From the NCBI RefSeq assembly GCF_003334405.1, contig NZ_QOWM01000010.1: a stretch of 64,000 nt of DNA; one strand, written 5' to 3'. The notes beneath the pieces are model-generated. The model was given only the letters and a program-made list of their open reading frames with translations, searched no databases and was not told the origin of the DNA. The first letter of the stretch is position 1, and each line of letters opens with the position of its first letter. Shown here piece by piece: positions 7,725 through 46,500 of the stretch. The translations under genes and the position numbers were made by a program. This stretch comes from Escherichia coli (GTDB lineage: Bacteria; Pseudomonadota; Gammaproteobacteria; Enterobacterales; Enterobacteriaceae).

Positions 7725-8675
<951 letters not shown>

Positions 8676-36972: not shown

Positions 36973-38346
36973 TTACTGGTTTTCAGCCAGCTGACGATCG
37001 TGGCGGCGTTTAAACATCCAGCCAATCAACAGCACAACAATCCACGCGAAACCGACATACAGCGAGATACGCGTATCCGGGTGATAACCAATCAACCCGA
37101 TAATAAAGAGCAGGAAAATCAGCCCGCCGATGGTCGTTGCTACCCCACCCGGCACTTTAAATTTCAGCGCCTTAACTTCTTCTGGCGGCAAACGGCGACG
37201 GAAGGCAATTTGCGACAGCAGGATCATAATCCACACCCACACCGTGGCGAAGGTTGCCAGCGAAGCGATCACCAGGAAGACGTTTTCCGGCATGATGTAG
37301 TTCAGATACACCGCAAACAGCAGCGCGGTAGTCATCACCAGCACCGTAACCCACGGAATACCGCGACGCGACGTTTTGCTGAAAATTTTCGGCGCGCTGC
37401 CCTGCTCTGCCATACCGTGGAGCATACGGCCTACGCCAAATACATCACTGTTAATTGCCGACAGCGAAGCAGTCAGCACAACAAAGTTAAGAATGCTGGC
37501 GGCAAAGGTAATGCCCATATGCTGGAACGTCAGCACGAACGGGCTACCGGCAGTGCCAACCTGATTCCACGGGTAGATAGACATAATGACGAACAGCGTA
37601 CCGACGTAGAACACCAGAATACGCATCGGCACGGAGTTAATCGCACGCGGTATCGATTTCTCAGGATCTTTCGCTTCACCGGCGGTAATCCCGATAATTT
37701 CGATCCCACCGTAAGCAAACATCACCATTTGCAACGACATTACCATGCCAAGCCAGCCGTTACTGAAGAAGCCGCCGTTGCTCCACAGGTTATGAATACC
37801 GGTCGGTTGCCCGCCGTTGCCAATCCCCCAGATGATGATGCCGAAACCGGCGACAATCATGATGATGATGGTGGCGACTTTAAAGAACGAGAACCAGAAT
37901 TCCAGCTCACCGAATACCTTCACGCTCATCAGGTTTACGGCGCAAATGATCAGCACCACGCTCAGTACCCAAATCCAGTGCGGCACCGTCGGGAACCAGA
38001 CACCCATATAGATACCAAAAGCGGTCACATCGGCGATGGCGACAATAAGGATTTCAAAGCAGTAGGTCCAGCCGGTAATGTAACCTGCCAGCGGGCCGAG
38101 GTTTTCCTGCGCATAACGCGAGAAAGAGCTGGCGGCCGGGTTATGTACCGACATTTCCCCCAGCGCACGCATAATGATATACGCCGCGATACCACCGATA
38201 ATATAGGCCAACAACACGCTCGGACCGGCCATTTTGATGGCGTCTGCCGAACCGTAAAACAGCCCGGTGCCAATTGCTGAACCCAGTGCCATAAAGCGTA
38301 TGTGGCGGGTACTTAGCCCACGCTTTAGCTTGTTCTTACTTTCCAT
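36973..38346 (-). CDS. proY: proline-specific permease ProY (457 aa)
   Basis: ORF track 36973..38349 begins MMESKN; start placed at the second ATG ([22 protein letters not shown]). APC-family amino acid permease. Confidence 0.93.
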
Positions 38347-38367
38347 CAATTCCTAACCCATCAACAC

Positions 38368-38421: not shown

Positions 38422-39741
38422 TTAGTGAGCGCTGGAGGTCACCTGACGACCTGCCGCGCGATCCCAGATAATGGCCAGAACCACCATCACCACTGTTGGC
38501 ATTAACCACGCCAGACCTTGTTCGGCCAGCGGTAAACGCTGCGCCCAGGACGGTAAGATATCGCTGAATGCAGATGCTTTGATCCCGTCGAGAATACCAA
38601 AAAGCAGGCTGATAAACATCGGCGGAGCAATCACGCGGGACGAATTATGCCACCATGAGCGTGTAAAACTTAATACAACCAGTGCGATACACGGCGGATA
38701 AATAGCGGTCAGCACCGGTACGGAGATCTGGATCAGCTGGCTTAAGCCGAGGTTAGAAACCACCATCGAGAAGCCGCCGAGGATAAACACCAGCGTACGA
38801 TAAGAGAGCGGTACGTACTGGGCAAAGAATTCTGCACAAGCACAGGTCAGGCCAACTGCCGTTACCAGGCAGGCGATGAAGATTAACGCCGCCAGCAGGA
38901 AGCTACCGCCGCCGCCAAAGGTGTGCTGAACGTAAGCATGCAGAATAGCAGCGCCGTTTGCAGACTGATCGACCAGCGACGCGCTGTCTGACCCCAGACG
39001 GAACAGCGCCAGGTACAGCAGAGTCAGACCAACACCCGCCATCAGGCCAGCCCAGACGGTATAACGGGTCAGCAGACGCGCTTCGGTAACGCCACGAGAA
39101 CGCGCCGCGTTAACAATAACGATACCAAACACCATTGCGCCCAGCGTATCCATGGTCAGATAGCCGTTAACGAAGCCGTTAGAAAACGCAGCGTTTTGAT
39201 AAGCCTCAGTCGCCGTGCTGATAGAACCCGCCGGCCAGACAATAGCGGCAACAGACAGGATGACCAGCGCGATAATTTTCAGCGGCGCAAGGAAGTTGCC
39301 CACGGTATCCAGCAGCTTGCCCGGATAGAGCGAAACCAGAATAACGATAGCGAAATAGACCAGGCTGTAGATAAACAGCGGCAGCGCGGAATCACCCGTC
39401 AGCGGCGCAATCCCCACTTCAAAGGAAACGGTAGCTGTACGCGGCGTAGCGAAAAGCGGCCCCACCGCCAGGTAACAAACCGTTGCCAGCAGTACGCCAG
39501 CGACTTTACCGATTGGCGTGCTGAGGCTGTCAACACCGCCGCCAACTTTTGCCAGCGCCACTACCGTTAATACCGGCAGGCCAACGGCAGTAATGAGGAA
39601 GCCGAATGCCGCAGTCCAGACGTGTTCGCCTGCCTGTAAGCCGACCATTGGAGGGAAAATAATGTTACCTGCGCCGACGAACAACGCAAATGTCATAAAG
39701 CCCAGAGCGATGATATCGCGCGATCTTAATTGATGGGTCAT
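38422..39741 (-). CDS. brnQ: branched-chain amino acid transporter BrnQ
   Basis: ORF track 439 aa, recognised as BrnQ (LIVCS family). Confidence 0.96.
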
Positions 39742-40083
39742 AAATCATACTGCCTGTGGATGTGGTGTTGTAACGTTAAATTTTTGTGCCAATCCCTGGG
39801 GATGATACAGCGGTATATTTAAACAATTTTAGCGGGAAATACTCCCAACCAGGCGCGGCGAAGAATAGTTTTTCGATTTACCGCGTTAATGCAGTCAGTA
39901 TGACAGCACCTGAAGCGCAATTTAAACGCTTATAACGTTTTAAAGCAAGGAGGGATCTAAAAACCAGAGGTATATAGCGATAAGAAATCACCAACCAGTA
40001 TAAAACACTATTTCCGTGAAAAAGACATGGCTAATCATGCGAACAAAAAATCACCAACCGTTGTAAAATCTAACGCCCGTATT

Positions 40084-40117
40084 TTGACTGCAAAGAAAAT
40101 AAGCCAGCATCGACTGG
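40084..40117 (-). terminator. intrinsic terminator after phoR
   Basis: AAGCCAG-CATCGA-CTGGCTT hairpin followed by ATTTTCTTTGC on the minus strand. Confidence 0.55.
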
Positions 40118-40147
40118 CTTATGGCAATAAAAGATGACAAAGGCGGA

Positions 40148-41443
40148 TTAATCGCTGTTTTTGGCAATTAAACGTTCCGGGATAACAAAACTGAAACGTG
40201 TTCCTTTTCCTACTGTACTCTCAATATTCAGGCGACTTTCGTGATGATTCACAGCATGTTTCACGATCGCTAACCCTAATCCGCTACCGCCGGTTTGCCG
40301 GGAACGCGCTTTATCAACGCGATAAAAACGCTCGGTCAGGCGCGGAATATGCTCCGGTGCAATGCCCGGTCCGTTATCTTCAACGCTAAATTCGGCACCG
40401 TGCGGCACTCGCTGCCAGCGTACGGTGATATGCGTGCCTTCCGGCGTATGATTCACGGCGTTATAGACCAGGTTCGAAATCGCACTGCGTAGCTGATCTT
40501 CGTTGCCAGACACCTTGAGGCCGTTATCTATCTCAAAGGTAAATGTCTGTTTTTTCTGACTCAGAGTCTGAGCCTCGCGCTCAACAACGCGCAGCATCAT
40601 CGGCACATCAACCTTTTCATTGAGCAAATGCGTCGGTGCGGCTTCTATTTTCGACAGCGTCAGCAATTGCTTCACCAGTCCTTCCATCCGCTGGGTCTGC
40701 TCGCGCATGGTGTGCAACGCTTTTTCGCGTACCGCGCCTTCCAGCGGCTGCTCATTCATCATCTCCAGGTAACCCTGTAACACGGTCAATGGCGTACGTA
40801 ACTCATGGCTCACGTTGGCAAAAAAGTTACGCCGCGCCCCTTCCAGTTGATGCATTTGCGTGACATCACGCGCCACCATCAGCAACTGTTTGTGGGTATA
40901 AGGCATGACGCGAATTTCCAGATGCCGCCCGGTGTTGAGCACCAGATTGAGCGGGCGAGAAAAATCACGCGTTTTCAGATATTGCGTAAACTCCGGGTAA
41001 CGCAGTAGGTTAAGGATGTTCTGCCCGTTATCTTCCGGCCAGCGCAAACCAAGAATTTGTTGCGCCAGACCGTTACACCAGAAAATACCGCCCTCTTCCG
41101 TGGTCAGCACCACCGCGTCGGGCAGCGACTCCGCGCCGCTACGAAAGCGTTTAATCAGATTGCCCAGTTCACGGCGGCGTTTTTTATTTCGCAGCTGCAT
41201 CTGGTGTAAGCCGTATAGTAGCGGTTCCCAGCTACCACGCCCCGGTGGCGGGGTCATACTGCGATCCACCCACAGCCACCATGAAAGGCGCAATAAATTC
41301 CAGAAATGCCAGATAAGCAGTCCTGTTACCGATGCCAGCAAAAACCAGGGCAGGTAACCAAAAAATGCACCCAGGATGAAAGCCGGGAGGCAGCAAAGTA
41401 GCAGCTCCAGCACCAGCCTTTTCCACGACAGCCGTTCCAGCAC
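40148..41443 (-). CDS. phoR: phosphate regulon sensor histidine kinase PhoR
   Basis: ORF track 431 aa; H-box [12 protein letters not shown], HATPase C-terminus. Confidence 0.97.
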
Positions 41444-43582: not shown

Positions 43583-46500
43583 AAATTCTCAGCCTGCGCC
43601 TGAAAAACCTGAACTCATTAAAAGGCGAATGGAAGATTGATTTCACCCGCGAGCCGTTCGCCAGCAACGGGCTGTTTGCTATTACCGGCCCAACAGGTGC
43701 GGGGAAAACCACCCTGCTGGACGCCATTTGTCTGGCGCTGTATCACGAAACTCCGCGTCTCTCTAACGTTTCACAATCGCAAAATGATCTCATGACCCGC
43801 GATACCGCCGAATGTCTGGCGGAGGTGGAGTTTGAAGTGAAAGGTGAAGCGTACCGTGCATTCTGGAGCCAGAATCGGGCGCGTAACCAACCCGACGGTA
43901 ATTTGCAGGTGCCACGCGTAGAGCTGGCGCGCTGCGCCGACGGCAAAATTCTCGCCGACAAAGTGAAAGATAAGCTGGAACTGACAGCGACGTTAACCGG
44001 GCTGGATTACGGGCGCTTCACCCGTTCGATGCTGCTTTCGCAGGGGCAATTTGCTGCCTTCCTGAATGCCAAACCCAAAGAACGCGCGGAATTGCTCGAG
44101 GAGTTAACCGGCACTGAAATCTACGGGCAAATCTCGGCGATGGTTTTTGAGCAGCACAAATCGGCCCGCACAGAGCTGGAGAAGCTGCAAGCGCAGGCCA
44201 GCGGCGTCACGTTGCTCACGCCGGAACAAGTGCAATCGCTGACAGCGAGTTTGCAGGTACTTACTGACGAAGAAAAACAGTTAATTACCGCGCAGCAGCA
44301 AGAACAACAATCGCTAAACTGGTTAACGCGTCAGGACGAATTGCAGCAAGAAGCCAGCCGCCGTCAGCAGGCCTTGCAACAGGCGTTAGCCGAAGAAGAA
44401 AAAGCGCAACCTCAACTGGCGGCGCTTAGTCTGGCACAACCGGCACGAAATCTTCGTCCACACTGGGAACGCATCGCAGAACACAGCGCGGCGCTGGCGC
44501 ATATTCGCCAGCAGATTGAAGAAGTAAATACTCGCTTACAGAGCACAATGGCGCTTCGCGCGAGCATTCGCCACCACGCGGCGAAGCAGTCAGCAGAATT
44601 ACAGCAGCAGCAACAAAGCCTGAATACCTGGTTACAGGAACACGACCGCTTCCGTCAGTGGAACAACGAACCGGCGGGTTGGCGTGCGCAGTTCTCCCAA
44701 CAAACCAGCGATCGCGAGCATCTGCGGCAATGGCAGCAACAGTTAACCCATGCTGAGCAAAAACTTAATGCGCTTGCGGCGATCACGTTGACGTTAACCG
44801 CCGATGAAGTTGCTACCGCCCTGGCGCAACATGCTGAGCAACGCCCACTGCGTCAGCACCTGGTCGCGCTGCATGGACAGATTGTTCCCCAACAAAAACG
44901 TCTGGCGCAGTTACAGGTCGCTATCCAGAATGTCACGCAAGAACAGACGCAACGTAACGCCGCACTTAACGAAATGCGCCAGCGTTATAAAGAAAAGACG
45001 CAGCAACTTGCCGATGTGAAAACCATTTGCGAGCAGGAAGCGCGCATCAAAACGCTGGAAGCTCAACGTGCACAGTTACAGGCGGGTCAGCCTTGCCCAC
45101 TTTGTGGTTCCACCAGCCACCCGGCGGTCGAGGCGTATCAGGCGCTGGAGCCTGGCGTTAATCAGTCTCGATTACTGGCGCTGGAAAACGAAGTTAAAAA
45201 GCTCGGTGAAGAAGGTGCGACGCTACGTGGGCAACTGGACGCCATAACAAAGCAGCTTCAGCGTGATGAAAACGAAGCGCAAAGCCTCCGACAAGATGAG
45301 CAAGCACTTACTCAACAATGGCAAGCCGTCACGGCCAGCCTCAATATCACCTTGCAGCCACTGGACGATATTCAACCGTGGCTGGATGCACAAGATGAGC
45401 ACGAACGCCAGCTGCGGTTACTCAGCCAACGGCATGAATTACAAGGGCAGATTGCCGCGCATAATCAGCAAATTATCCAGTATCAACAGCAAATTGAACA
45501 ACGCCAGCAACTACTTTTAACGACATTGACGGGTTATGCACTGACATTGCCACAGGAAGATGAAGAAGAGAGCTGGTTGGCGACACGTCAGCAAGAAGCG
45601 CAGAGCTGGCAGCAACGCCAGAACGAATTAACCGCGCTGCAAAACCGTATTCAGCAGCTGACGCCGATTCTGGAAACGTTGCCGCAAAGTGATGAACTCC
45701 CGCACTGCGAAGAAACTGTGGTATTGGAAAACTGGCGGCAGGTACATGAACAATGTCTCGCATTACACAGCCAGCAGCAGACGTTACAGCAACAGGATGT
45801 TCTGGCGGCGCAAAGTCTGCAAAAAGCCCAGGCGCAGTTTGACACCGCGCTACAGGCCAGCGTCTTTGACGATCAGCAGGCGTTCCTTGCGGCGCTAATG
45901 GATGAACAAACACTAACGCAGCTGGAACAGCTCAAGCAGAATCTGGAAAACCAGCGCCGTCAGGCGCAAACTCTGGTCACTCAGACAGCAGAAACGCTGG
46001 CACAGCATCAACAACACCGACCTGACGACGGGTTGGCTCTCACTGTGACGGTGGAGCAGATTCAGCAAGAGTTAGCGCAAACTCACCAAAAGTTGCGTGA
46101 AAACACCACGAGTCAAGGCGAGATTCGCCAGCAGCTGAAGCAGGATGCAGATAACCGTCAGCAACAACAAACCTTAATGCAGCAAATTGCTCAAATGACG
46201 CAGCAGGTTGAGGACTGGGGATATCTGAATTCGCTAATAGGTTCCAAAGAGGGCGATAAATTCCGCAAGTTTGCCCAGGGGCTGACGCTGGATAATTTAG
46301 TCCATCTCGCTAATCAGCAACTTACCCGGCTGCACGGGCGCTATCTGTTACAGCGCAAAGCCAGCGAGGCGCTGGAAGTCGAGGTTGTTGATACCTGGCA
46401 GGCAGATGCGGTACGCGATACCCGTACCCTTTCCGGCGGCGAAAGTTTCCTCGTTAGTCTGGCGCTGGCGCTGGCGCTTTCGGATCTGGTCAGCCATAAA

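Follow-up and report, generated by a model that had tools for sequence, protein, structure and literature searches.

The 12-nt sequence AAATCACCAACC occurs twice as an exact direct repeat on the plus strand upstream of brnQ, at positions 39985-39996 and 40048-40059 of the window (the whole 64-kb stretch of E. coli DNA that was analyzed), with a start-to-start spacing of 63 bp. The two copies are probably a lineage-specific microhomology with no dedicated factor, set in every other spacer within a phased array of sites of the Lrp type. The repeat is young, variable and limited to E. coli, and most likely not the target of a regulator. Its sole demonstrated consequence is mutational, as the substrate for a 63-bp deletion found in E. 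coli A39. As a short, recent and polymorphic microhomology of the kind found in any 64-kb stretch, it does not warrant annotation as an operator. As a modest result, the analysis yields a view of the brnQ-proY control region at the level of single sites, with a sigma-70 promoter, a 170-nt leader, a candidate Lrp array and spacers of fixed length. Studies of Lrp control over branched-chain amino-acid uptake can draw from it specific bases to mutate.

Position of the repeat relative to the brnQ promoter

On its minus strand the window holds phoB-phoR-brnQ-proY of E. coli (Table 1). An initial annotation had placed the repeat between the phoR terminator and the brnQ start; its coordinates, sequence, flanking tails (AGTATAAAAC and GTTGTAAAATC) and 63-bp spacing all match the DNA. 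The gene assignments are correct as well, and both genes lie on the minus strand, so read along the genes the 12-mer is GGTTGGTGATTT. The phoR-brnQ intergenic region is 406 nt long.

Table 1. Features of the phoR-brnQ-proY region. S(n) denotes a Lrp-consensus-like 15-mer; mean scores (out of 15) are over 43 species.
Feature	Sequence	Window position	Strand	Remarks
proY		36973-38349	minus	
brnQ		38422-39741	minus	
Lrp-consensus-like 15-mer +74		39830-39844	minus	mean 10.5; 31 bp from +43
Lrp-consensus-like 15-mer +43		39861-39875	minus	mean 11.0
brnQ core promoter		39911-39948	minus	-35 TTGCTT 39943-39948; -10 TAAATT 39919-39924; start A 39911
S(-61)	CGCTATATACCTCTG	39965-39979	minus	mean 12.0, z = 3.8; highest cross-species score of the region
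Promoter-proximal 12-mer	GGTTGGTGATTT	39985-39996	minus	-85 to -74; inside the 16-nt spacer S(-92)/S(-61)
S(-92)	TAGTGTTTTATACTG	39996-40010	minus	Lrp-consensus-like palindrome; 13/15 in E. coli; mean 11.3
S(-124)	TCGCATGATTAGCCA	40028-40042	minus	mean 10.5, z = 2.8; 32 bp from S(-92); inside TTTTTTGTTCGCATGATTAGCCATG
Promoter-distal 12-mer	GGTTGGTGATTT	40048-40059	minus	-148 to -137; inside the 18-nt spacer S(-157)/S(-124)
S(-157)	CGTTAGATTTTACAA	40061-40075	minus	weaker; 11/15 in E. coli; mean 9.3; includes the distal TAAAA tail
Lrp-consensus score at -218				mean 10.25
Open reading frame	MANHANKKSPTVV...	40027-40137	plus	36 codons; antisense through the phoR terminator; contains the distal copy
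phoR intrinsic terminator hairpin		40099-40122	minus	terminator scan and inverted repeat; upstream boundary of the brnQ regulatory region
phoR		40148-41443	minus	

A single brnQ transcription start, supported by 54 reads and giving a 5'UTR of 170 nt, was reported by Kim et al. (2012) (PMC3415461, supplementary file 2) at NC_000913.2 position 418645. Their upstream sequence ends with TTGCTTTAAAACGTTATAAGCGTTTAAATTGCGCTTCA, which places the start A at window position 39911 on the minus strand. In the same work the K. pneumoniae brnQ orthologue starts no more than 1 nt from this position and has a 179-nt UTR (Kim et al., 2012; PMC3415461). The promoter is of the sigma-70 type, TTGCTT-N18-TAAATT followed by a GC-rich discriminator. 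For comparison between species, 80 Enterobacteriaceae brnQ loci were fetched and 43 representative upstream regions were aligned; the alignment has no gaps between about -165 and about +100, and its top-residue frequency averages 0.76. The core promoter is near-invariant in the 43 species (conservation 0.92) and lies within the best-conserved block of the region. Since transcription starts at 39911, the 12-mers are found upstream of the core promoter and outside the mapped transcript. They are clear of both promoter hexamers, and the proposal that they represent duplicated -35/-10 elements was abandoned. TATATA at 39970-39975, at first considered as a -10 element, forms the core of S(-61); the idea was dropped when the start had been mapped. 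A promoter scan of both strands gave no hits and also missed the real TTGCTT-N18-TAAATT, and is hence uninformative. A literature search found no specific account of a characterized E. coli brnQ promoter or leader. A GATC (Dam) site at 39954-39957 on the minus strand (-46 to -43) is invariant; it falls within the block TCTGGTTTTnnGATCCC, with S(-61) on one side and the -35 hexamer on the other.

How unusual the repeat appears depends on the length of DNA considered. An exact 12-mer repeat turned up in 1.6-4% of Markov simulations of the 406-nt intergenic region. When one half of the upstream region was aligned locally with the other, the score was 28, compared with 15.4 +/- 2.4 for dinucleotide shuffles (P ~0.0015). 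In a repeat search the similarity extended over 24 nt with 83% identity (39982-40005 and 40045-40068). Over the whole window, four exact 12-mers recur within 100 nt, and 30-41% of simulated 64-kb sequences contain at least one such repeat. The other three are GCATGGACATGA, CATGCTGAGCAA and ACAAGATGAGCA, with first copies at 8587-8598, 44749-44760 and 45291-45302 and partner copies 54, 81 and 99 nt downstream, respectively. The brnQ-upstream repeat is thus real, locally somewhat unlikely, and unremarkable given a search over 64 kb. The local improbability (P ~0.0015 to 0.04) counts against a reading as chance microhomology. Together with the exact match and its 24-nt extension, it speaks for true paired recognition sites, six turns apart on one helical face, for an E. 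coli-specific regulator or for Lrp. In the case of Lrp, the 12-mers could for example be auxiliary contacts by which the register of a wrapped Lrp octamer is fixed. We consider such paired sites unlikely on the evidence given below.

A candidate array of Lrp-type sites

The Lrp consensus yAGhAwATTwTdCTr (wording as in PMC5554404) is degenerate. Every aligned 15-mer in the 43 species was scored against it, and the background score was 6.5 +/- 1.45. S(-61) scored at least 11/15 in 84% of the 43 species and is represented by 28 distinct sequences. S(-92), with 33 distinct sequences, scored at least 11/15 in register in 79% of the species, compared with 25% for the background. Despite this variety both sites keep the YRG...CYR arms and an AT-rich centre. 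Matches of at least S(-92) quality number 13 in the whole window on both strands, and about 0.04 would be expected per 200 bp. S(-157) reached 11/15 or more in 38% of the species, and in E. coli itself S(-61) and S(-124) score only 10-11/15.

The upstream sites are spaced 31, 32 and 33 bp apart and the two downstream sites 31 bp apart. Three adjacent spacings of 30-33 bp among the top six positions have a probability of about 0.001 if positions are random. The spacers between the upstream sites are 18, 17 and 16 nt long in 43/43 species, with 37, 36 and 42 distinct spacer sequences, respectively. The array would illustrate selection that keeps the length of a spacer and not its sequence. Lrp-family proteins have been described to bind clusters of imperfect sites at two- or three-turn spacing (PMC2995911); both 15-bp consensus sites and spacing of this kind are found upstream of brnQ.

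Binding of Lrp to the phoR-brnQ spacer has already been published at low resolution. Shimada et al. (2015) (PMC5320599, Table S1) place a Lrp gSELEX peak at 418,534, within the phoR>brnQ spacer, and assign brnQ-proY to it as the target; the fragments in that work were 200-300 bp long and the 60-mer probes were placed every 105 bp. The peak corresponds to window position ~40022, or about -111, with a resolution of about +/-50-150 bp, and the centre of the array at about -109 coincides with it. Miyakoshi et al. (2015) (PMC4474525), citing Cho et al., name brnQ-proY among Lrp-affected genes. In the Lrp ChIP literature searched, brnQ is not mentioned. Neither individual Lrp sites at brnQ nor a precedent for the site-level phased architecture was found in the literature searched. 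The 15-mers were assigned from a consensus that is degenerate and an in-vitro peak of low resolution, and are probable candidate Lrp sites.

Phased arrays of degenerate Lrp sites are known from ilvIH, pap, gltBDF, dadAX and lrp. The brnQ array resembles them in its imperfect 15-bp yAGhAwATTwTdCTr palindromes upstream of a sigma-70 promoter, in the approximately three-turn (31-33 bp) spacing, in the in-vitro binding of Lrp, here seen at low resolution, and in its target, which is a branched-chain amino-acid transporter operon. It differs from them in the low scores of E. coli S(-61) and S(-124) (only 10-11/15) and in the unusual invariance of the S(-124) block. This 25-nt block, TTTTTTGTTCGCATGATTAGCCATG (40026-40050, minus strand, -139 to -115), is near-invariant in the 43 Enterobacteriaceae, a conservation well beyond the needs of a degenerate Lrp site. 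It may be bound by a second factor or serve as a nucleation site.

In the proposed mechanism, the Lrp dimers of an octamer or hexadecamer would bind the 15-mers cooperatively, all on one side of the helix, and so modulate brnQ-proY transcription. The sequence of the spacers would be free apart from its length, and the identity of the two 12-mers would be a recent coincidence in length-constrained, sequence-free spacers, with no role of its own. The 12-mers fall in the first and third spacers of the periodic structure, and the 63-bp distance between them is therefore two periods. S(-92) directly adjoins the proximal 12-mer, contains its TAAAA tail and shares base 39996 with it. The extended similarity of the flanks (TTTTAYA) is due in part to the adjoining halves of Lrp-like sites. 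The roughly six-turn spacing pointed out in the initial annotation is accounted for as two periods of the 31-33 bp array, and not as the distance between recognition sites formed by the 12-mers.

The same arrangement can be cited for paired recognition sites: 63 bp is two array periods, the gSELEX peak at ~40022 lies midway between the copies, and, suggestively, each copy sits at the same place within a super-period of two units. Against this, the resolution of gSELEX is too coarse to single out the 12-mers, and the 12-mers themselves score only 9-10/15 against the Lrp consensus. Scans with the CRP, NtrC, IHF and PhoB consensus strings gave no match over the 12-mers or around them. W3110, the strain used for gSELEX, presumably has the 11/12 allele of the K-12 strains MG1655 and BW25113. 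The suggestion that the repeat marks paired sites for a regulator, with Lrp among the candidates, thus agrees with the region, which is bound by Lrp in vitro, and does not agree with the 12-mers, which lie in spacers of almost free sequence. Like PhoB boxes, OmpR sites and iterons, the 12-mers are direct repeats upstream of a promoter, and they lie beside phoBR. However, the repeats of PhoB and OmpR sites are 7-11 bp apart within a site, and iterons are tandem at about 22 bp, with conservation across species, whereas the brnQ repeat has a spacing of 63 bp and is unconserved. Unlike PhoB boxes, it has no match to the Pho box consensus.

Conservation of the repeat between and within species

The proximal 12-mer has the lowest conservation of the intergenic region in the 43 species (0.52, compared with the mean of 0.76). 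The distal 12-mer is partly kept as TG.T..TTT running into a conserved T-run, and it reaches 0.76 only because its T-rich end merges with the near-invariant block TTTTTTGTTCGCATGATTAGCCATG. When the aligned 12-mers were compared with each other in each of the 43 Enterobacteriaceae, the identity was 12/12 only in E. coli proper, 8-10/12 in E. albertii and three other Escherichia lineages, and 1-9/12 in the 38 other species. The initial annotation had named lack of conservation outside E. coli as grounds for giving up paired regulator sites, and among the 43 Enterobacteriaceae the pair is indeed absent outside E. coli proper. This restriction, and the location of the proximal copy in a conservation minimum, argue against recognition sites. 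Binding sites can turn over fast, and non-conservation is therefore no strict bar to an E. coli-specific function. Apart from E. coli, only two Kluyvera species (L021 and L026) gave a significant result in the local-alignment test; they carry a direct similarity, ACGTCTGATTATTTTTT / ACGTCTGCCTATTTTTT, in about the same two spacers (P <=0.007). That a comparable within-genome similarity occurs in Kluyvera can be counted in favor of paired sites; its sequence is unlike that of E. coli and its register is shifted by 4 nt.

The outgroup sequences suggest that the distal spacer was ancestrally GTCTG.TG.TTT and that the alternate spacers of the Escherichia ancestor were already alike at ~10/12 (TGGTGATTT plus G). 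One or two more substitutions in the distal spacer then appear to have completed the 12-mer identity in most E. coli. We also considered whether the repeat goes back to an old tandem duplication in which a ~63-bp promoter-upstream module of two Lrp-site units was copied and has since diverged. The periodicity of the region (31-33 bp units) and the extent of the similarity, which spans 24 nt into the flanking site halves, fit such an origin. However, the best local alignment gave no alignable similarity between the 63-bp units beyond these 24 nt, and both units are individually orthologous in 43/43 species. The similarity also peaks in E. coli, the youngest lineage, and is lower in the outgroups, which is the opposite of decay. 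An old duplication is highly improbable and was rejected.

The brnQ upstream region was found in 5424 of 5426 complete E. coli genomes. The proximal 40-mer is identical in 4978/5425 genomes. At the distal copy, 3825/5425 genomes have the 40-mer of the window, 917 have a 40060 G>A allele that lengthens the exact repeat to 13 nt, 344 have the K-12 allele and about 339 have other alleles; about 30% of E. coli genomes thus differ near the distal 12-mer. In K-12 (MG1655 and BW25113) a C>T change at 40058 reduces the repeat to 11/12 with an exact run of 10 nt. Further alleles are 40057 A>G in the distal copy and, in one sampled strain, 39995 C>A in the proximal copy. The presence of both copies in most E. 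coli and the 13-nt allele are what paired recognition sites would have in their favor here. On the other side, polymorphisms are more frequent in the 12-mers than in the Lrp-like 15-mers: in a sample of 12 strains spread over the identity range, 3/24 repeat positions vary (39995, 40057 and 40058), compared with 0/60 in the four upstream Lrp-like sites. The numbers are small, and the direction is clear: the repeat positions are more variable than the Lrp-like sites. With at least four alleles in the distal copy region and an 11/12 repeat in K-12, the 12-mers show no sign of within-species purifying selection.

E. coli A39 (NZ_CP028737.1), a natural isolate that came from an Australian rodent, lacks exactly the 63 bp that correspond to window positions 39997-40059. 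It has lost one repeat and the intervening 51 bp, and a single GGTTGGTGATTT remains. This gap is the signature of a deletion between direct repeats, and the microhomology has acted as a deletion substrate. With S(-92) and S(-124) gone, S(-157) comes to lie 33 bp from S(-61), still in phase. In the classic lacI deletions, the endpoints are short direct repeats and the deletion is RecA-independent, by slipped mispairing. The brnQ repeat is alike in having exact 12-bp direct repeats 63 bp apart of which one copy is kept in A39. It is unlike them in that only one deletion between the 12-mers was found among 5425 genomes; no switching of the phase-variation kind is implied. It is very unlikely that the identical spacers are functional in E. 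coli, either through contacts with a lineage-specific factor or with a Lrp oligomer, or as an in-phase deletion module that tunes brnQ-proY. If there were such a module, the Lrp array could shrink by exactly two units without loss of register, as in A39. In another strain, E. coli GDSC2BY4G (NZ_CP136025.1), an IS1A element is inserted near window position ~40097, between the phoR terminator and the upstream array.

The plus strand and the brnQ leader

The repeat could in principle belong to a feature of the plus strand, either a 36-aa open reading frame or an antisense or divergent transcript. The reading frame (Table 1) is ATG-initiated, has 36 codons and starts in the conserved block. In other genera, however, stop codons follow after 8-17 codons or the ATG is lost (Kluyvera, Klebsiella), and the conserved start MANHANKK reflects conservation at the DNA level. 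Only one copy of the repeat lies inside the frame, the scan found no promoter-like site for it, and there is no Rfam match. A plus-strand origin of the repeat is hardly credible, and a conserved small protein at 40027-40137 was rejected on the broken reading frame in other genera. An Rfam scan of 39400-40400 at a permissive threshold returned only a meaningless tmRNA fragment (8.4 bits) and no known RNA.

The 170-nt brnQ leader (39742-39911, minus strand) has strong sequence conservation. RNAalifold found no conserved structure in this 5'UTR (-0.55 kcal/mol). The CA-rich stretch CAACACCACATCCACAGGCAGTA (39748-39770, minus strand), just 5' of the brnQ ATG, is invariant in all species. A GcvB R1 seed target at brnQ has been verified in Salmonella and is listed as conserved in E. 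coli (PMC9299463), and the CA-rich stretch fits this reported target. Also in the leader, TGGCAC-N5-TTTAA (39775-39791, minus strand) is similar to a sigma-54 -24 element and lacks the -12 GC; its TGGCAC is Escherichia-specific. A gSELEX peak for RpoN plus NtrC at 418,832 (PMC8743547) lies about 65 bp from this motif.
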